Of a stretch of DNA of 64,000 nt, positions 10,001 through 18,472 are shown in pieces; position 1 is the stretch's first letter, and every line of letters starts with the position of its first letter. The position numbers and the translations under genes were made by a program. Under the pieces are notes generated by a model, which was not told the DNA's origin, did not search any database, and worked only from the letters and a program-made list of their open reading frames with translations. Source of the DNA: a virus; IMG/VR virus record IMGVR_UViG_2974553163_000001; one strand, written 5' to 3'.

Positions 10001-12107
10001 ATACATTAGAGGTAACTCAACTGGTCTTGCAGTTTATTCTAACTGGTTTAAAATTTGGTCAGAAAATAATCAGGGTGCATCCAGTGGTATGGATTCTGAC
10101 AAGTTAGATGCAAAACAAGGTCTATGGTATCAAACAGGTTATAACATAGGTGATACACGTGGTGGTATCACATCACCTATTGGTGATATGTTCTTACCAG
10201 AGGTTCTTGGTAAAGACAAGATGGTCTTTGAGAACTTCTATGTTAATGACACAGGTAATAAATTTACATTATACATTCCAGACTTCCATTGTAATAGTGG
10301 TGTTGGTGGTAACATCAATAATGGTGGAACATACACTATCTACTCTGATGTAGGTGCAACAAACAACATTGGTTCTATCGTAGTTGATAGTTCTGGTGGT
10401 GTTCAAGAAAAGACACACACAACTGGTGAGATTTATTCACTTGTAACTGGAACAATTGCATTCGTTGGTAATAACACTAACGCAAACGTATATGTCTTCG
10501 GTCCTAATCCTGGCACAAAATGGACAGTATCATCATCTAACAAAGTCTCTAGTGGATCTACAACAATCTTTGGATTACGTGATAATGCAAATGGTGCTAA
10601 ATTACAGATTGGTAAATCAGCAGTATCTACTACACCAACAATAGACTTTAGATCATCTGGTCAGGCACCAAACTATGACGTTCAAATGATCGTCTCTGGT
10701 GGTAATGGCACAGATGGAAATGGTGCTATTAGATTCAATGCTTCGGACTTCACTGTAAATGGTAATACAGTATGGCATGCAGGAAATGATGGTAGTTCAT
10801 CTCAGCTAGACGCCCATTACTTAGATGGTTATACACAGAACACTGCTGCAGTTGCTAATACAATCGCACGTAGGGACGCATCAGGACACTTAACAGTTAA
10901 TGACTTAACAGGTGACCAAGGTATCTTTACCAACAACGGAACAGGAACATTAAGTCTTGCAGATGGTAATGGTATTACTATTGGTAAGGCAACAACTAAT
11001 ACTGCAGTAATCAAAGGTAAGAATAATTCTAGTGTTGGTTATCTAAGATTTGGTAGCGATAGTAATTCACTTGGATACAACGGAACATATCTCAACTACA
11101 ATAACATCACATTCCGTAGCGGTAGAATAGGTATTGGTGATACAAATCCTGGCTCACCTCTTGAGATTGTTGCTGAGGGTAATGCTAGTTCTGCTACTGC
11201 ATTTGCTGACTTTAGAGACGGTAGATCAGGTTATGGTAGAATAACATTTGGTGCTGATAGTTCATCAGCCTTCATGACATTCACTGACACTGACAACGAC
11301 ACAGGTTGGCAGATGGGTTCTGATGATAATGATCAGTCATGGTTTGCTATCAGAGGATTTACTACTGCATCTGGTGCGTTAAACACAGCATTCCAGTTAA
11401 ATGCTAAACAAAACGCAGCGTTAGCAATTTACTCTGCAACTGGTAGAGTATTCATTAACAAAGGATCTAGTGTTAGTACTGGTGGTGGATCACAACTAAC
11501 GGTTGGTGGATCAATTGAAGCTAGCAGTCAACTTGTATCTACTGTTGCAACTGGTACTGCACCATTATCAGTATCATCAACCACTATGATCAATAACTTG
11601 AACGCAGACATGCTTGATGGTTATGAAGCACTTAACTTACCATACTTACAGGGTACAGTTAACCAGTGGATTTTAGATGCGGGTGGTCAGGCAAGATTCT
11701 ACTTCTCTAACAACAGTCACACTTACTTTAGAACAGGTGACGACTTCTTCTTTAGAAATGACAGTGACCAGACATTTGCATCATGGGATCAAGGTGGTAG
11801 AACACACTTCCATGAACCTGGCAGCAACAGCATTCAGTCAACATACAGAATGCAAGTTACAGGTGATAATGGATTGAACGTTAATGCATCTGAAGGACTA
11901 TCTTCTGGACAGAAGAGCACAGTTCTAAGAGCAACAGGTGACAAACAATGGATAGATAGTTATGGAATATTTAAACGTAACAGACAGGCAATCAGTGAGA
12001 GTGTCACAATATCAAGTAGTGATAACTGTATGACCGCTGGTCCTATCACTATAAATAATGGCAGCACAGTTACTGTAAGTAACGGTGGAGCATGGGCAAT
12101 CGTATAG
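1074..12107 (+). CDS. Giant multidomain tail fibre / virion structural protein (3677 aa)
   Basis: G/S/T/N-rich. Has a beta-helix-like entry (GRSAARPVKTIKKA...GEYLEDNPISLPRNCSLVGDNLRRV), repeated HG(L/F)xxGD modules, NGGxGY modules and fibre-type (N/D)ADxLDG repeats. Ends in a GPITINNGSTVTVSNGGAWAIV-type C-terminus typical of marine phage fibres. Confidence 0.8.
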   Translation: MSFQINTDQQRITASGTKATGNWTNATYSRTAAGVGNIVSVAHGIIGTEKLYIDFTSGGEVDGTFTVTKVDDDNLSFTGSATSVITAGATLAYKRVRSLSIQGDESLEISVGTGALEKDAIFIGKNAQENVRVGINTTDPQYELDVEGQIRTTRSIISDTAQVTNLDIDTIINPALNLRAPNLINFEDTDVTSPTFGTTFYPTADTPPLSDQSRRVATTDFVYQVATNDTGGRVYVSQTIGSDLNDGRSAARPVKTIKKAAQIAYGLQKATPDPSDEYVTIIVSGGEYLEDNPISLPRNCSLVGDNLRRVIVRPQNQDRHMIKASNETYIFGVVFRDALQNASNPQSTVIHTWKYAFVFDDKQRLYYEPEVQQIPAAPGNKFRGDNIFKITFNNHTGSETTLVVGRFVQGGSSGTLGTIQSVNFTGPTASPNSTGDVTILITSGVDDVFQDAETVFYDAVAANIITDINNASVSDRFDVVDAESLRPELETISNQIYQHTIDTEVETVSFRGSLNYIDTTLDRITITAHGLLTGQQVLYSQDENTTPLPGLINGIRYWVRKVDDNTIELYDNEANSLASTSITQGRKDLTGVSSDDKLHELTTGNVMLDDNHIYIKKHQFATGDGVVYRQGKMGGIGGLVDGTAYFVYKESDNWFRLASSAANATQKDASGADNPVTLSLTSTGLGFQRFELQPQVLSITTIDTSLNTVATYNGPIFNLATSSVSSDFHDYEVGQEVNVYGFQNSAIDFGSSTNTAYSISGGLITVQVTGVDNTKTSAFFGNMATLGQAGVTFNFPTADARFSKTYHIGNWSTGTGTPSLPGNSDLGLGYARYNSSNTTITFVLKQANIDTASDVSTSSGTGVSILNNLEDLNGRKYITHRIERADGYSLQFVVRANISEISTGLNPTGDQSVVGSNNYVLASLRNSPYGFSKINISDRFRDGAENIKNNQEFIAEESVGYVKYYYESSATRGTALTIGGTNFGQVAATVARGITSWAVTGDKCKIKVQKGHNLYPSFSQHTPSTATYTASSGNVVVTINGHGFEVGDLIKFDPGALVFRCSMDSYSTLHAYPRQGDPAADKWLKITAKTTNTFTVNVGTSPTVNHQVSNATYNPTTGLMELTIGNHTLKAGTSIKMPVGAVTFSCAFGGGGQVNKSYPRSDFINPGGQVTNAAYNPTTGIMTVTTTSAHGLQNGNKIQLEDDSFSFTCTHGSGTKTYPRSTDPLSGRNIPVFNVTTNTFDIQTLDVVPSTNTTTHTFVSATSTAVKKKKDAKIYDEAVRIESVTATTITVQTLENTPSTNTDAHTFISAATNAVVSGGNYTHEFASAGTNSVKKALTSAVTIANSGNATVNGTHGISDIYDDREFTIDLTDSSADTQTGSAGTFTDNQQPFRTPNSKDQGNKYGDVSELLFANADMIAEYAVNKMLAANSGYNIPTGSTACYDDLRDFIQKCVAHNLKWGGNDRVYDQAKFYIDPGFSLTRDRYVEAFNYAKDACILAGRNLPLYRNPYSTKLQYYHLATLDTGAGTVRRDAATLIQNNLDFIANEAVQRYEFDNPGHRIPGANQNCVDDALDVLRAVTYNLAYGGNEQVYDAANLYVGSTFLDGEETESRAVFALVSSIAQQVVESQTVTVEGNHGFAQVTDNTNKGTTVEANLVAGFFTIVDTAIANDNMSHATRTVATAPSCANVISAITTFFSTLTTALGSGSTAGSVSGVTRTSSPGDQQCIDDVMKITRAFQYDLRYGGNSKIVEAANLYISGASGVQHVATEVTYTRAIFAAAKELCIDAIRNNLETGQFSQIPIRSNGSITVDSSAPECANVVSALTTNWGILDNVLSSGNAYSGTTTNPDPLVVEQDQSEFSFPLVNTFLDLPVIEASPYIQNSSLISFLGGSGCEIDGAKVATPNVPRPGLKQNSQGATVAQFDPQGKSMVANAFTIICFGGTAYNVSNDGYTQLVSVFAIFCQDGILTQSGGYSSVTNSASNFGTYALRSTGFRAEAYSFDIGVIDSITDDTDGNGVPTGRQIIQVSGTTLTGIPVEDYIIKVDGYTSSDPAVEHIILETELVSGSSGTQVVAKITTNRAMDFSQGGNRYQSTNDPSFAAGSLPLSNLVGAGIRFHRPSVTNSSSHTWEYSGSGNTYAALPQNGGVGLGTAYEAAEEKFGQVYTSGTNEFGDFKVGNFVTIFNRTGAISFVGTVSISELSSIKIVGGDITITGFSQDDNLGGTFASDSLLPTQASVRDYISNNLGPYLNQPYSTNAVPSALVQLTSSGKINIDQIPALRPFNITSVTSTAERLAIEDANAGDIAIETTATTFNVATASFNTANEQITIASHGINTGDLLTYTEGTTAIGGLATGSNYYAIKVDDNTIKLASTESNASANNPVDLGSGGAGTHQIKTQGVAISYILENDLESQFLAFTPNSAYTFSVGNIIVGSSTTARGTVSSYNDGQIFNFVISTAGDSYSGDFALTISAPDDTSNGVQAAATANVVNGSVTKVTITNGGKGYYTQPTVQAQVSSGTTAVIAAQIEGRVSINIANNIKFDAGDFILDQGLVNEATGTYAQSGTTITVTESTSHNLSNADLVYLDFTSGGSSDGFYTISLINSTQYSVTSPNSGTQSGNMARKRIIDLSRVINTSASNAANWTQLTSTNIDASNIVAGTIDPERLAGKGTANSYTFLRGDSSWEYALQSIRPTTQDALVVGGSLQDSSYIQSITITNGGTGYTNGTYQNIPLGGGNVSISSDSVARGTYIVSGGTITSATVTDSGTGYTGDFSVTIPSELGGGNGAILGAVKGTINRAFGNIEIDIRKGNNLTASSIVYGNYGVFRFRKDVTNQAVGNQDQGGFIIGNDGSVSIDQGQGSELNADLLDGSEGSFYQTADNIIFGTLDPARLANVTYSISISGTADTANRIFNETASLTSNPAPAQAANGVGAALRNNNADGLSDGGTTHGVVTYRREATGSAATQLGFTANNNLYIRGNSTGLAVYSNWFKIWSENNQGASSGMDSDKLDAKQGLWYQTGYNIGDTRGGITSPIGDMFLPEVLGKDKMVFENFYVNDTGNKFTLYIPDFHCNSGVGGNINNGGTYTIYSDVGATNNIGSIVVDSSGGVQEKTHTTGEIYSLVTGTIAFVGNNTNANVYVFGPNPGTKWTVSSSNKVSSGSTTIFGLRDNANGAKLQIGKSAVSTTPTIDFRSSGQAPNYDVQMIVSGGNGTDGNGAIRFNASDFTVNGNTVWHAGNDGSSSQLDAHYLDGYTQNTAAVANTIARRDASGHLTVNDLTGDQGIFTNNGTGTLSLADGNGITIGKATTNTAVIKGKNNSSVGYLRFGSDSNSLGYNGTYLNYNNITFRSGRIGIGDTNPGSPLEIVAEGNASSATAFADFRDGRSGYGRITFGADSSSAFMTFTDTDNDTGWQMGSDDNDQSWFAIRGFTTASGALNTAFQLNAKQNAALAIYSATGRVFINKGSSVSTGGGSQLTVGGSIEASSQLVSTVATGTAPLSVSSTTMINNLNADMLDGYEALNLPYLQGTVNQWILDAGGQARFYFSNNSHTYFRTGDDFFFRNDSDQTFASWDQGGRTHFHEPGSNSIQSTYRMQVTGDNGLNVNASEGLSSGQKSTVLRATGDKQWIDSYGIFKRNRQAISESVTISSSDNCMTAGPITINNGSTVTVSNGGAWAIV
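4135..5100 (+). repeat. Internal tandem domain repeats in the giant fibre
   Basis: Three related units: TATYTASSGNVVVTINGHGF / NATYNPTTGLMELTIGNHTL / NAAYNPTTGIMTVTTTSAHGL. Similarity persists at DNA level (aacgcaacatataatccaacaacaggt ~4401 vs aacgctgcatataatcctactacaggt ~4588). Confidence 0.75.
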
Positions 12108-12110
12108 AAA

Positions 12111-13073
12111 ATGAGCACATTATCAGTTCACAATTTACAAGGAATATCAACTTATAGTAATAAGATTGAGATTCCATCTGGGCACAAATTATCTGGTGCT
12201 GCAGGACAATTTCGCTTACCTAATTATGCATCTAATGCAAAACCTAGTAATCCAGAATTAGGTGATTTGATTCTTAATTCCACAACTGCAACTTTAGAAG
12301 TTTGGACAGGCGATAGATGGGCAGTTTGTGGTGGAGGAAATAGAGGTGGATCTCAAAGTAATCCTGCAGAGTCTGGAGGAGATGCTTATGATAATGGACA
12401 ACAAACATCTGGAAATGTTTGGGTTACAATACCTGGTAGTGGAGCATTTAACTTTGAATATGATGCGGGTGATAGATATGGAACTGGAGACAGAGGTTGG
12501 ATTAAATATGACTCTGCGTTTTTTGGAGCAAACAATGCTGCGATAACACACGTAGAATATGGAAGTCCTGGTTCAATTACTCCTGCATGGAATACTAACA
12601 GCACTTCATCAACAAGTAATGATACTATCAACCAAGGAAGGTTGAGAATTGGTAGAGAGCAATCACATAGTGGTGGTAACTCATTATCAACTATTAGATG
12701 TTCATTACCTAAATTGACAAAGGCACGTTATCAGATGTCTGCAAACTCAGGTGGTGCTGATACTGCTGACTTTGGATCTTTTACACAGAACTTTAGTGGC
12801 ATCGTAAACAACTCACCTTATCAGAACAATGGATCTGGTTATTGGTGTGTTATATGGGATGGTAATCCCTCTGGTAACTTCAGCAGTAATATGCTGATCC
12901 TTGATCCAGGCAACCTCAGAAGTGGTAATGGTTCTTATAGTCAAACTATAGGTCCTCTATCATTCGGTACTGAAAGAGGTTCATCTAGTCAGGTTCCACA
13001 AATTATCTGGGGAACAACTGATGCTTATAGAGAGTACAGTTACATTAACTCTTGGGAACTTTGGTTACATTAA
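12111..13073 (+). CDS. Short tail-fibre-tip-like virion protein
   Basis: N-terminus MSTLSVHNLQG, then PxxGDLILNSTTATLEVWTGDRW fibre motif, then a G/S/N-rich globular C-terminal region. Architecture shared with 17567..18472. Confidence 0.6.
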   Translation: MSTLSVHNLQGISTYSNKIEIPSGHKLSGAAGQFRLPNYASNAKPSNPELGDLILNSTTATLEVWTGDRWAVCGGGNRGGSQSNPAESGGDAYDNGQQTSGNVWVTIPGSGAFNFEYDAGDRYGTGDRGWIKYDSAFFGANNAAITHVEYGSPGSITPAWNTNSTSSTSNDTINQGRLRIGREQSHSGGNSLSTIRCSLPKLTKARYQMSANSGGADTADFGSFTQNFSGIVNNSPYQNNGSGYWCVIWDGNPSGNFSSNMLILDPGNLRSGNGSYSQTIGPLSFGTERGSSSQVPQIIWGTTDAYREYSYINSWELWLH

Positions 13074-13079
13074 AGAATT

Positions 13080-14249
13080 ATGGCATCTAGAATTAAAGTT
13101 GATGAAGTAACAAACGTAGCGGAATCGGGATCGGTTTCGTTTCCAGCTGGTGGTGCCAGTTTTACTGGAACCGTTAATGTTAGTGGTAATATTGACTTTA
13201 CTGGACAACTACTACAAAATGGATCTCCATTCGTAACACTACCTACACAAGACGCAAGTAACTTAGGTTCTGTTCTTAGATCTGGTGGTAATACTGGACA
13301 AGCATATTGGGATACTACAGGTGGTACAGGAACTGCAGAAGGTGCTGACCAAGCAAGATATAAAGCAGGATTTAATATAACAAAAGGTTTTAGTTGTTGT
13401 GGATATAGAGGAGGAACATCATATAGAAACGTTAATGTATTAACACACGCTACATTCTCACAGTCAAACTTAGGAGATTTGACTAACTGGTCTGGTGCAT
13501 ATATTGATGGAAAACCAAGTCTAAACTTTACTGGATTTGTATTTGCAACTGGTAACGGATGGAACACAACTACCAGTCAGGTATCTAAAATTAACATGAA
13601 CACTAGCAGTAATGCGGGTGCTGCCACATCAATGGCAGGAACAAAACACAGAGCTACTGCAATGGCAAAAGATTTTAACTTTGCTTATGTACATGGTGGT
13701 GGTAACTCTAGTCAGATGGTGAAGTATAATCTTAATACAGAAGCAAATGCTTTTAGTACAACTCACCCTGATGGTACGCAAAACAACCCTGCATCTAGTC
13801 AAGCTTCTACTGTTGGACATATAAAAACAGGATCTGCTAGAACATATAACTTCTCAACAGAATCATTTACATCATGGCCTAACGGACCTGGTACAGACGG
13901 AACTAACAAAACTCTATCAAGTAGAGATGGTTTTGCATACTGGAATACTGGTGGTGGTTATCGAACATCTAGTGACTGGCATTTAAGAAGCACATACACT
14001 GGTGGATACTTAGCAAACGTCAGTAAGAACGGACTAACAACTGGTGAGGAAACCATGCACACAGGTAATGACTATGGATTTATTTGTGGTCAGTATGATG
14101 GATCTCAGAATAACAACGGATATCTCTTTACATATGCAAGTCATAGTTTCACAAGAGATAGTAGAATGGACAGGTCAGGACCTCCTGGCACAGCGTCTGC
14201 TGCGGGTATAGAGTTCGGAACTCTAATGTATGGATACACAGGATTCTAA
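13080..14249 (+). CDS. Virion protein with a fibre-type N-terminus and a predicted beta-propeller (kelch-like) C-terminus
   Basis: MASRIKVDEV N-terminus. Repeated G-rich blades (GFSCCGY, YVHGGG, YWNTGGG, GFICGQY). Confidence 0.55.
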   Translation: MASRIKVDEVTNVAESGSVSFPAGGASFTGTVNVSGNIDFTGQLLQNGSPFVTLPTQDASNLGSVLRSGGNTGQAYWDTTGGTGTAEGADQARYKAGFNITKGFSCCGYRGGTSYRNVNVLTHATFSQSNLGDLTNWSGAYIDGKPSLNFTGFVFATGNGWNTTTSQVSKINMNTSSNAGAATSMAGTKHRATAMAKDFNFAYVHGGGNSSQMVKYNLNTEANAFSTTHPDGTQNNPASSQASTVGHIKTGSARTYNFSTESFTSWPNGPGTDGTNKTLSSRDGFAYWNTGGGYRTSSDWHLRSTYTGGYLANVSKNGLTTGEETMHTGNDYGFICGQYDGSQNNNGYLFTYASHSFTRDSRMDRSGPPGTASAAGIEFGTLMYGYTGF

Positions 14250-14251
14250 TC

Positions 14252-14998
14252 ATGACAAAGAAGTATTACATAGCAAGACATGACCCTCGTATCACAGAGA
14301 TACTTACTGCTGAATTAACTTTTAATCAGTATGGTGTTACTGTATTTTCTATTGATGAAGCTTGGGTAAGAGATCTCCATAAGTTACATGGTTCATATGA
14401 AGAGGTAACAGAAGATATAGGTGAATGGGGTGTAAAACACTTTGGTGAAGTTCGTACTGAAGTTAAGGTTACTTCAGAAGATCCACTATCATCTGAAAAT
14501 ATTATGGGAGATGTCTCAACAGAAGGAAAGACTGTTGTTACATTACCTCAAGAAAGAATTGATGCTGCTATTGCCTTTATGAAAGTTGCAGCAAAACTAA
14601 TCATTGAAGATGAGTATGATAGAAAGTTCTTGACATTAAAAGCAGAAGAGTCTAAAATAGAACAGTATCTTTGGGATGCCCAGATAACCGAAGCTAATAA
14701 TTTAGAGGGTGAAACACCCTTACTAAATAGTATTGCTACCGCCAAAGGCATTGCGGTATCTGACGTGGCAACTGCTGTCTTGGCAGGAAACAAAACTTTT
14801 AATGATAAAGTAAAAGCATTGTATGACTCAATGTTAGTGCTTAAGCAAGAATTTAAAAGTTGTGCTACAATAAAAGAACTTAATGTTCTATGGCAAAAAT
14901 ATATGGGTGTGCCTATGCCATTCAGTCAAATGGAGGAAGAGGGTCTTATCGGTGAAGATGGAATCCCACCTGTAGTGCCAACTGGTTTACAATTCTAA
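14252..14998 (+). CDS. Putative tail-fibre assembly chaperone-like protein
   Basis: Segment YLWDAQITEA...ETPLLNSIATAKGIAVSDVATAVL resembles the W-x-x-Q-x-x-EA...TPLL-x-x-IA-x-x-(R/K)G pattern of phage fibre-assembly proteins. Lies directly after a fibre-type gene. Confidence 0.5.
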   Translation: MTKKYYIARHDPRITEILTAELTFNQYGVTVFSIDEAWVRDLHKLHGSYEEVTEDIGEWGVKHFGEVRTEVKVTSEDPLSSENIMGDVSTEGKTVVTLPQERIDAAIAFMKVAAKLIIEDEYDRKFLTLKAEESKIEQYLWDAQITEANNLEGETPLLNSIATAKGIAVSDVATAVLAGNKTFNDKVKALYDSMLVLKQEFKSCATIKELNVLWQKYMGVPMPFSQMEEEGLIGEDGIPPVVPTGLQF

Positions 14999-15011
14999 AT
15001 TAACTTTTTTT

Positions 15012-15779
15012 ATGTACAATATATCAGGTGATGCGATTGAAGCTTTCGTAGAAAGCAGCATGGACTATGGAATGACACATGAACAAATTAAGAATTTTGT
15101 TGTCAATTCCCACGTAACGGATAAGAGAAAACTCCGTCAAGTATTAGTAGAGATAGAAAGAAGAAATCACGATAGAAAAAAATGCGTCTTGGATCGTAAG
15201 AGAAAAGAAGTAGAAATCGCACGTCTTAAAGATAGATTACAAATTACTGAAGATCCCTATGAACGTCAACTCATGGAGTTTGACATAGAGGAATTTGAGT
15301 TAGATAGAAATAAGTATAACGTAACTCTTCATCAATATGATAATGAGTTAGCAGCGTTTCTGGATTGGATCAATAAAAACTGGGGAAGTATTGAAGAAGT
15401 TGAGAAGGCAGCAGAATATACTGAAGAAGATGAAAGAAAATATTGGATTGCTAGAATGGGTAAGCAAGCAGCAATGGATGTATATACAACAGGTAAGATT
15501 GGAACTGGTAACTTAGACTCTATCGCTATGATGAGAGAGGATGATCAGTTTGCAACTCTCAATGTTGCAATGCAATACTCTGGTTTGCTCAATGTGGGTA
15601 TCGCTAAGATACAAAATGAATTGAAACCTCACCTAGATAAACTAATGATGGATGGAACTTCCACTCGTGTCCCTACTATGGAAGGGATTGAGGATAGTCT
15701 CAACCTCAAACTATATGATCAATTAGCTGGTAATGAACAAAAGAGTCTTCTCTCTCCCGATCAATCCGAAACTGAGTGA
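15012..15779 (+). CDS. Hypothetical coiled-coil protein
   Basis: 255 aa, charge-rich helical stretch (KRKLRQVLVEIERR...). Overlaps the next gene by 47 nt. Confidence 0.7.
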   Translation: MYNISGDAIEAFVESSMDYGMTHEQIKNFVVNSHVTDKRKLRQVLVEIERRNHDRKKCVLDRKRKEVEIARLKDRLQITEDPYERQLMEFDIEEFELDRNKYNVTLHQYDNELAAFLDWINKNWGSIEEVEKAAEYTEEDERKYWIARMGKQAAMDVYTTGKIGTGNLDSIAMMREDDQFATLNVAMQYSGLLNVGIAKIQNELKPHLDKLMMDGTSTRVPTMEGIEDSLNLKLYDQLAGNEQKSLLSPDQSETE

Positions 15780-17472
15780 AGAGTTTGTAACTAATACATT
15801 CCTTCCATTTCTTAAAAAGTATCGCGAATACATATTAGATCTATATTTTACATGTAGAATACCTCCGTTTGATCAAGACGCTATGGGAGATACTTTCCTG
15901 TCTCCAGAAGCATTAACAGAATCAGCAATATACATTTCTAACGAATCAAATATACCACTGTCAGCGACGTTTAATAATATATGGGTTAGACCAGATCAAA
16001 AGAATCTAGACTTATGGATAAAGGAGTTTGCTCCCATCTATAATTCTGGAGTCAGAGTGGTAACTTTACCTCATACATCATGGGTTTCTACAGGACAAAT
16101 AAGATCAGTATTTCCAGAGTTGTTTGTTAAAAATACTATTCTTAGAGAGGTTACAAAACCTAATGATATAGTGCAGTTAGCAGAAGCAGGATTTAATTAT
16201 ATAAACTTAGACCGTGATCTCATGAGAGATCGTGATCAACTCTTACGTATTAGAAAAGCAAAGGACTATTGTAAGTATCTTGGCAAACCCGTTATGCTCT
16301 CAATGCTTGTCAATGAAACATGTTGGGGTGGTTGTCCTATCATGCCAGAGCATTATCAATACAATGCAACTAGAACAGAGAATGATCCTATATTTTTTGC
16401 TAGTCCTATCAGTAGAGTGTCTTGTTCTACATGGGATGTAGAGCATCCTGAGTTTGATCTCAAGCAAGCAAACTTACCTCCATGGAGAGAAGATTGGATA
16501 GAGATGCAAGAACTTGGTATTGATACATTTAAACTTCATGGTAGAGAGAGTATGATGAGACTCCAAGAAAGTATGGATCTCATTAAGAGGTGGGCAGATC
16601 AAGATGAATACATGTTTCCTGAGTATAAAAAATATACTAAAGCATTAAAAATAAAGGATTCTCCTATTAGTAAATGGAGAGAGAAGATCAAGACATGTAA
16701 GTTTGACTGTTGGGACTGTAACTATTGTGAGGCAGTGGTGCAATCACATATGAAAAAACAAGACTTAATTGTGCACCCACAGGTAGAAACATGTATTGAA
16801 GGATTTACAAACTCTGGTAAGTATCTCTCTAATCATAGAACTTATGATCCTAATGACCCTAGTGCATATTATAATGTGCCAGGTCTAACATCTGCTAGAG
16901 TCAGACATTTTCTAAACAACCTCTGCTCTCAAGAAGGAGCAGTATATCTTGAGGTTGGTGTATATGCAGGAGCAACATTTTGTGCTGCAGTACAAAACAA
17001 TGACATGGTTGCTGCATATGCAAATGATAACTGGTCACAACAAAACTTACAGCCAGCAAGAGAAGATATAAATTTAGATATTCAAGATGTAACTGTAGAT
17101 ACTTTTGTACAAAACTTACAGGAAAATATAACAACAGACTCATTAGACTTTGATATACAAGTATTGAATGGAGACTCTTCTGAGTTGGGTAAGAAAGATT
17201 TTAAACATGATGTTAATATAATATTCTATGATGGAGATAATTCTGAAAAGAAAATGAAAGAGTTCTTTGTCAATATGATTGACTTCACAGAAGATGTATT
17301 TACATTAGTTGTGGATGATGCAAATATAGAAAACAATGTTAGGATAACTAAAAGGTACATTGAGGACTTAGGACTTAAGGTTTTATATGAAAGAGAATTG
17401 TTAAATGATCAAGAAGATCCTGAGATGTGGTGGAATGGTTTGTATGTGACTGTTCTTCAAAAACAAATTTGA
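15733..17472 (+). CDS. Peptidase-U32-like (Fe-S) domain fused to a class I SAM-dependent methyltransferase
   Basis: N-terminal region has NETCWGGC...C and TFKLHGRE (U32 KIEGR-like) plus CKFDCWDCNYC. C-terminal region has motif I YLEVGVYAG, IFYDGD and LVVDD (Methyltransf_24-like). Confidence 0.65.
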   Translation: MNKRVFSLPINPKLSEEFVTNTFLPFLKKYREYILDLYFTCRIPPFDQDAMGDTFLSPEALTESAIYISNESNIPLSATFNNIWVRPDQKNLDLWIKEFAPIYNSGVRVVTLPHTSWVSTGQIRSVFPELFVKNTILREVTKPNDIVQLAEAGFNYINLDRDLMRDRDQLLRIRKAKDYCKYLGKPVMLSMLVNETCWGGCPIMPEHYQYNATRTENDPIFFASPISRVSCSTWDVEHPEFDLKQANLPPWREDWIEMQELGIDTFKLHGRESMMRLQESMDLIKRWADQDEYMFPEYKKYTKALKIKDSPISKWREKIKTCKFDCWDCNYCEAVVQSHMKKQDLIVHPQVETCIEGFTNSGKYLSNHRTYDPNDPSAYYNVPGLTSARVRHFLNNLCSQEGAVYLEVGVYAGATFCAAVQNNDMVAAYANDNWSQQNLQPAREDINLDIQDVTVDTFVQNLQENITTDSLDFDIQVLNGDSSELGKKDFKHDVNIIFYDGDNSEKKMKEFFVNMIDFTEDVFTLVVDDANIENNVRITKRYIEDLGLKVLYERELLNDQEDPEMWWNGLYVTVLQKQI

Positions 17473-17535
17473 CTTTTAAATTACAAATAAACAGAAAAAA
17501 TTTTTTGGGTAATTTTTCCCTTAAAGGTTTTTCGT

Positions 17536-17542
17536 CTAAATA
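17536..17542 (+). promoter_or_regulatory. Late promoter variant CTAAATA
   Basis: CTAAATA about 25 nt upstream of ATG 17567. The same variant recurs before several late genes. Confidence 0.6.
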
Positions 17543-17566
17543 TAGTAGGACTTATTACAGGATATA

Positions 17567-18472
17567 ATGGGAACGCTTAATGTAGGAACTGTAAATGCCA
17601 GTACTTTAGATGCTGCAGCAGCTCTAAACTTTCCAACATATAGCACTGGTTCTAGACCTAGTAGTGGAATAGATACAGGTGCTACAATTTATAATAGCAC
17701 TACCGAGAAGTTACAGACATGGAATGGATCTGAATGGATGGATATCGGTGGTGGTTCAGAACCAGATGGATCTTCTTCTGATAAAGCAGCAGCAAGTGCA
17801 GCAGCTATATTACAAGTTAATCCTCAAGCAACAGATGGTGTCTATTGGATTTTACTCCCAAGTGTAGGAGCAAAGCAAGTATATTGTATGATGGATACAA
17901 ACCACTTGGGTGGTGGAGGTTGGATGTTAGCATGGAAATGTACTAGAGGAAGTACATTCCACTATGACACTAGTTACTGGACATCTACTAACACATATAA
18001 TGAAACATCTCAGTTGAATAGAAACGATGGTGATCATAAGAACCACGTATTTAATTACTTTGTTGCAGGAACACTCGGTGCTGTATTTCCAGACTTGAAC
18101 AATGGTGGACAATCATCAGTTGGTTATAATGGTTGGACTTGGAAACAAGGTGGTGTAGGACAGACATGCTTACAAAGATTCCAAAGTAACTATCGGATAT
18201 CAAGTAACCCACGTGGAGAAAGTATGTGGCAGGGATCTGGATTCTCTGGTCAAGGTGGATTCCAATGGTATGGATTTAACTATACTGGATCAAGTAACAA
18301 TGCTATGCGTTGGGGATTTGGTTGGAACAACGAGGGTGGAGAAAGTTCTAATGACGTTTGTAGTGGTATCGGTCATCGTAGAACAGACTCATCTGCAGGA
18401 GATCATATCTACTGCTGTCAATCCACTACTGGTGTAAATAGAAGCTGTCGTGCGGAGATCTGGGTACAATGA
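17567..18472 (+). CDS. Tail-fibre-tip-like protein with fibrinogen C-terminal-like domain
   Basis: GATIYNSTTEKLQTWNGSEW fibre motif followed by DGVYWI...QVYCMMD...GGGWML, the entry signature of fibrinogen-C-like domains. Confidence 0.7.
   Translation: MGTLNVGTVNASTLDAAAALNFPTYSTGSRPSSGIDTGATIYNSTTEKLQTWNGSEWMDIGGGSEPDGSSSDKAAASAAAILQVNPQATDGVYWILLPSVGAKQVYCMMDTNHLGGGGWMLAWKCTRGSTFHYDTSYWTSTNTYNETSQLNRNDGDHKNHVFNYFVAGTLGAVFPDLNNGGQSSVGYNGWTWKQGGVGQTCLQRFQSNYRISSNPRGESMWQGSGFSGQGGFQWYGFNYTGSSNNAMRWGFGWNNEGGESSNDVCSGIGHRRTDSSAGDHIYCCQSTTGVNRSCRAEIWVQ

Follow-up and report, generated by a model that had tools for sequence, protein, structure and literature searches.

The window analysed here is a 64,000-nucleotide stretch of viral DNA (IMG/VR record IMGVR_UViG_2974553163_000001); it is part of a T4-like cyanomyovirus with a GC content of about 37-38%, and among public records, myoviruses of Synechococcus and Prochlorococcus are closest to it. 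One of its genes, located on the plus strand at 15733-17472, joins a predicted barrel domain of the U32 type to a predicted S-adenosylmethionine (SAM) methyltransferase. The reading that we favor, with a little less than even confidence, is that the product is a two-domain tailoring enzyme of the T4-like cyanophages, in which a U32-type oxidation would be followed by O-methylation. As judged from sequence profiles and structural models, the N-terminal domain is a genuine but very remote relative of the U32 proteins and belongs to a family of its own that the Pfam model does not cover, and the C-terminal domain is a probable cation-dependent O-methyltransferase.

According to the listing of open reading frames (ORFs), the gene is a single ORF of 579 amino acids that starts with ATG and overlaps the upstream gene by 47 nucleotides. 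The start is backed by homologues whose alignments begin at residues 1-5. The two PHROG families that it matches, PHROG 1458 over the full length and PHROG 36869 over residues 5-339, are both labeled "unknown function". The features of the gene and its product are as follows:

15733-17472, plus strand: the whole fusion gene, with a full-length match to PHROG 1458 (E 7e-242)
15733-16767, plus strand: N-terminal U32-like (beta/alpha) barrel domain, residues 1-345, predicted from an AlphaFold2 model, fold searches and HHalign
16207-16230, plus strand: LDRDLMRD motif, aligned to the U32 motif LSRELS in the confident HHalign segment, with R161 and R165 at least 93% conserved
16315-16425, plus strand: E195-x-C197-x3-C201 and C231, candidate iron-sulfur (Fe-S) ligands
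16531-16545, plus strand: K267-L-H-G-R271, putative counterpart of the U32 motif KIEGR, from a relaxed HHalign extension of low confidence
16696-16728, plus strand: C322-x3-C326-x2-C329-x2-C332, candidate second metal or Fe-S site
16768-17469, plus strand: class-I SAM methyltransferase domain, Methyltransf_24-like, residues 346-579, predicted from a near-threshold Pfam match, an AlphaFold2 model and fold matches
16948-17028, plus strand: SAM motif I (L-E407-V-G409-V-Y-A-G413) and D432, which ends strand beta-2, invariant in the alignment of the C-terminal domain
17224-17325, plus strand: acidic motifs F-Y-D500-G-D and D528-D529-A-N531, candidates for metal binding or catalysis, by conservation

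A preliminary description, made from the letters of the window alone, had quoted six motifs of this protein, and every one of them is found in its place: CWGGC at residue 197 (nucleotide 16321), CSTW at residue 231 (16423), FKLHGRE at residue 266 (16528), CKFDCWDCNYC at residue 322 (16696), LEVGVYAG at residue 406 (16948) and FYDGD at residue 498 (17224). The motifs are not due to chance, because their key residues are conserved or invariant among 45 homologues of the N-terminal and 13 homologues of the C-terminal domain. The same description expected automatic annotation to call the protein a collagenase or a hypothetical protein. The latter label is indeed in public use, along with "methyltransferase", whereas collagenase is never used. 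Our literature search returned no publication on phage U32-like proteins, none that ties U32 proteins to cyanophages or to ribosomally synthesized and post-translationally modified peptides (RiPPs), and none that names PSSM4_035, the intact copy in phage P-SSM4. The copy in the Prochlorococcus phage P-SSM3, which belongs to the same genus, matches residues 5-444 only and is unannotated in its record (L017:4038-5652); it may be truncated or frameshifted.

The affiliation of the N-terminal domain is most evident at the level of the fold. The AlphaFold2 model, computed with 45 diverse homologues as input, consists of a (beta/alpha) barrel followed by helices and has a mean local confidence score (pLDDT) of 92.6 and a global score (pTM) of 0.90. 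The top match of this model in a Foldseek search of the PDB was the U32 protein Mk0906 (5D88). An independent fold search of 48,161 chains with VIA-align singled out the same structure with a Z score of 16.6 (228 of 247 residues, root-mean-square deviation 3.3 A), and the matches next in rank were generic barrels, no other chain having a Z score above 12.2. Among the Swiss-Prot entries of the AlphaFold database, the best match was MJ1657 over residues 6-337 (template modeling (TM) scores 0.67/0.71, E 3e-12), followed by TrhP from three species, TrhP2 and TrhP1 from B. subtilis, PrtC, MJ0090 and UbiU; nine of the ten best matches are U32 proteins. Clusters named "Peptidase U32" were also matched among the fold clusters of the AlphaFold database and in the ESM Atlas (TM scores 0.58-0.70), and the nearest Atlas cluster of proteins other than fusions has PF01136 on 20% of its members.

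Profile comparisons with HHalign add a modest sequence-level link. The family profile aligned to E. coli TrhP with a probability of 86% (E 5e-6), to a profile in which 80 TrhP orthologues were combined with RlhA, UbiU and UbiV with probabilities of 74-81% (E 1-3e-5) and to the four E. coli U32 paralogues with a probability of 42%; comparisons to UbiU alone or UbiV alone were not significant. The same co-linear segment of about 90-110 columns was recovered each time, pairing residues 83-180 of the phage enzyme with residues 66-156 of TrhP. Within this confident segment, R161 and L163 of the L159-x-R161-x-L163 motif (at least 93% conserved) stand opposite the U32 motif L-S-R-E-L. Further along, K267, G270 and R271 are conserved in at least 96% of the 45 homologues, and KIEGR is invariant among TrhP, RlhA and UbiU of E. 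coli. Since the fold searches rank U32 proteins first and the profiles match over the core of the U32 domain, we consider the N-terminal domain to be a distant U32 relative, as predicted. When residues 1-360 were used as query in an exhaustive phmmer search, 248 cluster representatives were obtained, which comprise fusions, standalone proteins of about 340 amino acids and remoter proteins of 400-550 amino acids.

The cysteines in the motifs of the preliminary description are conserved, and none of the computational outcomes that it listed as refuting its reading was obtained. Seven cysteines (C197, C201, C231, C322, C326, C329 and C332) are invariant in 45 of 45 homologues with 24-61% identity, and two others are poorly kept (C41 in 31% and C180 in 11%). 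In a larger set of 71 family members that includes the most distant ones, C322, C326, C329 and C332 are still invariant, and C197, C201 and C231 are retained in at least 90%. The invariance of the seven cysteines suggests two sites, and these are probably two metal or Fe-S centers. The canonical ligand motif for the 4Fe-4S cluster in U32 proteins is C-x6-C-x15-C-x3/4-C, from which both UbiV (ligands C39, C180, C193 and C197) and UbiU (ligands C169, C176, C193 and C232) deviate (PMC6747719). The position of C231 in the phage enzyme recalls that of the UbiU ligand C232 (PMC6747719). The four-cysteine cluster C322-C332 has no counterpart in the alignment with the E. coli U32 proteins.

For the C-terminal half, the earlier proposal of a SAM methyltransferase is borne out by fold and motifs, which predict a class-I enzyme of the O-methyltransferase type. 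The isolated domain scored 26.1 bits against Pfam Methyltransf_24 (PF13578; E 1.7e-5), just below the cut-off of 26.3 bits, and the same family is matched by five of the 71 relatives (best E 3e-9). Its AlphaFold2 model (pLDDT 86) has the class-I Rossmann methyltransferase fold and resembles more than 50 methyltransferase structures at Z scores of at least 12.5 in VIA-align. At the top of the list are the rhamnosyl 4'-O-methyltransferase SpnH (Z 16.0) and a Desulfuromonas O-methyltransferase (8C9V, Z 15.8), followed by the sugar 1-O-methyltransferase MeT1 (Z 15.5) and an O-methyltransferase from M. tuberculosis (Z 15.3). E407, G409 and G413, D432, F498-Y499-D500 and D528-D529 are invariant, and N531 is nearly so, in the 13 homologues of this domain. 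The only PDB sequence matched by its profile is TrmR/YrrM (5ZW3), in a weak alignment (E 0.035) that places FYDG opposite FIDA and DDAN opposite DN.

The two halves are also found as separate neighbors. Metagenomic phage contigs (L013/L014 and L023) carry a standalone homologue of the N-terminal domain with 43% identity, followed by a separate, overlapping gene for a homologue of the C-terminal domain (31% identity, E 7e-23), which in L013 has a weak match to Methyltransf_24. The pair is preceded by a radical-SAM gene in these contigs. The occurrence of the two halves as adjacent genes in other phages supports the prediction that they are functionally coupled. Other domain arrangements were also seen. 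In P0126, a protein of 553 amino acids on a 2-kb ENA contig, the partner of the barrel is not a methyltransferase but DUF7483 (E 1e-49), of which the C-terminal two-thirds are present, and in P0127 and P0128 it is followed by other, unrecognized C-terminal domains. One bacterial cluster in the Atlas and one in the AlphaFold database join the barrel fold to radical-SAM or HemW domains. Some bacterial members (P0267, P0271 and L005:7570-9197) are extended at the N-terminus by about 230 amino acids, a stretch that looks like a partly duplicated beginning of the barrel; in L005 the duplication-like part is called as a gene of its own, of 147 amino acids.

Hydroxylation is followed by O-methylation in known U32 pathways, with UbiU/V acting before UbiG in the ubiquinone pathway and TrhP before TrmR or CmoB in tRNA, and cation-dependent O-methyltransferases prefer products of the catechol or enol type. 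For these two reasons we favor a hydroxylate-then-methylate scheme. The N-terminal domain would have kept the L-x-R-x-L, K-x-x-G-R and C-x3-C elements, with C231 in place of the other cluster ligands, and would have gained the family-specific C-x3-C-x2-C-x2-C site. It may carry out an O2-independent oxidation or hydroxylation of the U32 type, after which the C-terminal domain would methylate the new hydroxyl to give a methoxy group. U32 proteins are Fe-S proteins needed for prephenate-dependent hydroxylation (PMC6747719, PMC10990095), and their known chemistry is the hydroxylation of an aromatic ring beside an oxygen substituent that is already present, the new oxygen being donated by prephenate (PMC10990095).

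Several results weigh against this scheme. A Pfam and NCBIfam scan gave no match for residues 1-345, and Peptidase_U32 (PF01136) was found neither in the protein itself nor in 20 representatives; none of the 71 family members reaches its cut-off, and the single weak match has an E value of 0.033. A search of the PDB sequences with the hidden Markov model of the family found no U32 chain, and no PDB chain at all. The canonical four-cysteine motif of U32 proteins is absent, the C-x3-C pair (C197 and C201) being kept and the C-x6-C pair missing, and the placement of C197-x3-C201 on C193-x3-C197 of TrhP comes from a relaxed HHalign extension of low confidence. What stands of the proposed U32 assignment is thus the barrel fold together with two U32 motifs, and what falls is membership of the Pfam family and possession of the canonical motif. 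On the side of the methyltransferase, the O-methyltransferases lead only narrowly, by about one Z unit, since tRNA m1A58 methyltransferases reach a Z score of 14.8 and B. subtilis TrmR one of 14.5, which is close to a tie. Even in the case of genuine U32 proteins, a direct in vitro demonstration of the hydroxylase activity is lacking (PMC10990095). Finally, the clues to the substrate point in several directions, to a peptide, a sugar or the DUF401 membrane protein described below.

Among phage records, the gene occurs mostly in cyanophages. It was found in 124 of 50,697 phage records (full-length in 119), of which 77 are from Synechococcus phages, 38 are named "Cyanophage", six are from Prochlorococcus phages and three from Ralstonia phages. 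The small protein encoded immediately upstream, phrog_1409, was found in 121 of the 50,697 records, and its breakdown among the cyanophages is identical to that of the enzyme gene; the Ralstonia homologues of phrog_1409 are too divergent for the tblastn record search and were detected by direct comparison. Homologues of phrog_1409 adjoin the U32-like gene in most of the contexts inspected, namely in S-H25, in L013/L023, L015 and L024, and in RP12, a jumbo phage of Ralstonia whose gp281 lies directly upstream of the U32-like homologue gp282. The features of the surrounding module, inside and outside the window, are as follows:

12050-12057, plus strand: TATAAATA, a late promoter of the T4 type ahead of the packed run of genes at 12111-17472
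14252-14998, plus strand: phrog_1604, a second recurrent small member of the module, with homologues in five contexts
15012-15779, plus strand: phrog_1409, the upstream partner, 255 amino acids and helical, with the 47-nucleotide overlap into the enzyme gene
Elsewhere: DUF401 genes in S-H25 (L002:8185-9207), L013:8743-9642, L023:9655-10659 and L024:4490-5551

The invariant motif of phrog_1409 is E-x2-Y-W-x2-R-x3-Q-A-x2-D-x4-G-x2-G-x-G-N-x2-S. We considered whether the protein could be a prephenate binder, given that the best PDB match of its profile was to the substrate-binding segment of the prephenate dehydrogenase 2F1K (E 0.033), over G-K/R-I-G-x-G-N. This match is at the noise level of coiled coils and was not reproduced with TyrA or PheA of E. 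coli (probability below 1%), and the resemblance is probably due to chance. Homologues of phrog_1604 are located in L002 (S-H25), L013 and L023, and as two copies each in L015 and L024. In four phage lineages, a polytopic membrane protein, DUF401 (PF04165), is encoded beside the U32-like gene or close to it, and in RP12 it follows that gene with an overlap of eight nucleotides (gp283, L001:7016-8056). DUF401 was identified in 12 phage records, all of them from lineages with the U32-like gene; a literature search for it yielded unrelated DUF40xx families only. Neither a DUF401 gene nor a radical-SAM gene was found in the 64-kb window. We also considered the "hypothetical T4-GC cassette" (Sullivan et al., 2010), and its gene set differs.

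The setting of the module is that of late genes. The neighbors are fibre-like genes (phrog_4831, phrog_1417 and phrog_1325), and downstream in the window are the neck and sheath-stabilizer genes gp13, gp14 and gp15. A terminator search within the run 12111-17472 found no site above chance, and late co-transcription of the enzyme with the fibre-like genes is likely. Three fibre-like proteins with related N-termini (12111-13073, 13080-14249 and 17567-18472) flank the module, and paralogous fibre-like sets of three copies each are seen in S-H25 and in L013/L023. The enzyme gene is followed by an AT-rich spacer of 95 nucleotides (17473-17566) with a CTAAATA about 30 nucleotides before the fibre-like gene at 17567, which may be a second late-promoter-like element.

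More distant homologues are found in quite different surroundings. In a bacterial metagenome contig (L007:4148-9215), the homologue is part of a RiPP-like cluster with PqqD, two radical-SAM/SPASM genes, a protein of 312 amino acids and a 47-amino-acid ORF rich in Cys, Tyr and Ser; a LytTR two-component system is encoded upstream, and peptidases, one of them of the S24 type, and an ABC exporter follow the small ORF. In this context, U32-like enzymes may serve as peptide tailors. In a 109-kb virus-like contig with Volactin and DHFR (L006:5588-16719), the homologue lies amid four radical-SAM genes, GT2, epimerases, PIG-L, UDP-glucose dehydrogenase and a split transketolase, which looks like an elaborate sugar-tailoring island. 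A distant clade of 424 amino acids is encoded in three marine contigs (L019:1961-5486, L020 and L021), two genes after a flavin-dependent tryptophan halogenase, and is followed by a conserved acidic ORF of 75 amino acids. The latter was considered as a RiPP precursor; it does not have the look of a RiPP core, and the halogenase context carries little weight. One further bacterial locus was uninformative.

What, then, could the substrate be? The genes around it speak against tRNA as the target and for a virion protein, peptide or glycan. A target other than RNA is favored because a Pfam scan of the protein found neither Peptidase_U32_C nor any RNA-binding domain, the neighboring genes are not related to RNA, and the distant homologues are located in clusters for peptides or sugars. 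We place an aromatic side chain of a virion protein or peptide first among the candidate targets, albeit tentatively; a sugar or glycan is possible though on the unlikely side, a membrane component or small molecule is doubtful, and RNA or DNA is improbable. The preliminary description had drawn an analogy to tRNA modification by TrhP and TrmR, which in light of the gene context is the least likely target. As such a modifier of tRNA or rRNA from the host or the phage, or of DNA, the enzyme would be a one-protein version of the two, forming a 5-methoxy-pyrimidine of the 5-methoxyuridine (mo5U) type and tuning translation during infection. The tRNA position U34 and the 23S rRNA position C2501 are indeed among the characterized U32 substrates (PMC10990095), TrhP is the best-aligning U32 protein of E. 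coli, and TrmR/YrrM is the best PDB sequence match of the C-terminal profile, although not a significant one. Nevertheless, the gene is part of a late fibre run rather than of a set of early or nucleotide-metabolism genes, and its partners phrog_1409, phrog_1604, DUF401 and radical-SAM proteins are atypical of RNA modification, as is the placement of the distant homologues; together with the missing RNA-binding domain, these features make a role in nucleic acid modification improbable.

A sugar or glycan tailor, in which the barrel would oxidize or otherwise modify a nucleotide-sugar or glycan and the C-terminal domain would O-methylate a sugar hydroxyl for display on virion fibres or the cell envelope, fares somewhat better, and we regard it as unlikely rather than improbable. 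The sugar O-methyltransferases SpnH and MeT1 rank among the top structures, Glf, GT2 and a TylF-like methyltransferase are encoded within 5 kb in L013/L014/L023, the sugar-type genes of L006 are of the same nature, and an intermediate that is lipid-linked or exported could be handled with the help of DUF401. However, the Z scores fail to separate sugar O-methyltransferases from other O-methyltransferases, no glycosyltransferase or sugar-nucleotide gene is located beside the module in the window, most of the 121 cyanophages have the enzyme without DUF401, and the known substrates of U32 proteins are aromatic rings rather than sugars. It is also conceivable, if doubtful, that the barrel is not a hydroxylase but an Fe-S enzyme with two clusters and a redox or radical function, whose C-x3-C-x2-C motif would act in the manner of a radical-SAM site or which would be an electron-transfer partner of the neighboring radical-SAM enzymes, and that the methyltransferase acts on carbon, nitrogen or sulfur or in another step. 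The spacing C322-x3-C326-x2-C329 is that of radical-SAM enzymes, and nothing in the family is more strongly conserved than this motif; radical-SAM genes are immediate upstream neighbors in L013/L023 and in L006 and lie close by in L007, the barrel fold is fused to radical-SAM or HemW domains in the bacterial clusters, and the chemistry of the U32 proteins is itself unresolved. Yet there is no match to Pfam Radical_SAM (PF04055), the cysteine motif is C-terminal to the barrel and not after strand 1, the top 50 fold matches include no radical-SAM structure, the window is without a radical-SAM gene, and the acidic motifs of the C-terminal domain are typical of O-methyltransferases.

Under the hydroxylate-then-methylate reading, the enzyme would be made late, alongside the fibre-like genes, and the phrog_1409 protein would work with it, perhaps as a partner, carrier or substrate. 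Some phages would add a radical-SAM enzyme and the DUF401 membrane protein to the system. In a broader and frankly speculative extension, which we think rather unlikely, U32-like Fe-S enzymes would be unrecognized tailors of proteins and peptides: the phage fusion together with phrog_1409 would place a hydroxy and then a methoxy group on aromatic side chains of tail fibres, and the standalone bacterial relatives would act on RiPP precursors along with radical-SAM/SPASM enzymes. If this is true, the methoxylation of tail fibres would alter receptor binding or stability. The product may have a bearing on how the virion functions or on the range of hosts because the gene is kept in at least 121 marine cyanophage records, amid host-recognition genes and despite the load of an iron-rich cofactor in iron-poor oceans.

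The U32 proteins form a large and poorly understood family with three known substrates, and it has been described as almost exclusively bacterial and archaeal (PMC10990095). A virus-dominated U32-like family with a seven-cysteine signature of its own would be a distinct branch. The presence of both a fused and a split form provides a Rosetta-stone argument for hydroxylation followed by O-methylation as a general logic of U32 proteins, and the phage enzyme offers a compact, soluble single polypeptide for reconstituting U32 chemistry. The strictly co-occurring phrog_1409 also gains a first functional lead.

By analogy, the phage enzyme would work most like TrhP with TrmR or UbiU/V with UbiG, from a position outside the canonical Pfam U32 family. 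TrhP (YegQ; TrhP1 and TrhP2 in B. subtilis) and TrmR (YrrM) convert uridine to 5-hydroxyuridine (ho5U) and then to mo5U, and this pathway likewise pairs a hydroxylase with an O-methyltransferase of the same superfamily as the phage domain; the barrel, the C-x3-C pair and the K-x-x-G-R motif are common to both. In contrast to TrhP and TrmR, the phage enzyme is a single polypeptide that is without Peptidase_U32_C and the C-x6-C pair, adds C231 and a C-terminal four-cysteine cluster, is encoded in a module of fibre genes and probably has a substrate other than tRNA. The resemblance to UbiU-UbiV, which act with UbiT and UbiG, lies in the variable positions of the Fe-S ligands, as in C197-x3-C201 and C231, and in the combination with an accessory protein and a subsequent O-methyltransferase; UbiU is also a structural match. 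Here the partner is phrog_1409 rather than an SCP2 protein like UbiT, and nothing points to a quinone substrate. The closest structures, Mk0906 and MJ1657, are single-barrel proteins that are likewise without the U32_C domain, but they share only 11-18% identity with the phage barrel and both are archaeal proteins without an assigned function. With the cation-dependent class-I O-methyltransferases (SpnH/TylF, MeT1 and COMT/CCoAOMT; Methyltransf_24 and Methyltransf_3), the C-terminal domain shares the Rossmann fold, motif I, the acidic residue of beta-2 and the D...DD-x-N pattern, and it differs from them in its marginal Pfam score and in being fused to a predicted Fe-S barrel.

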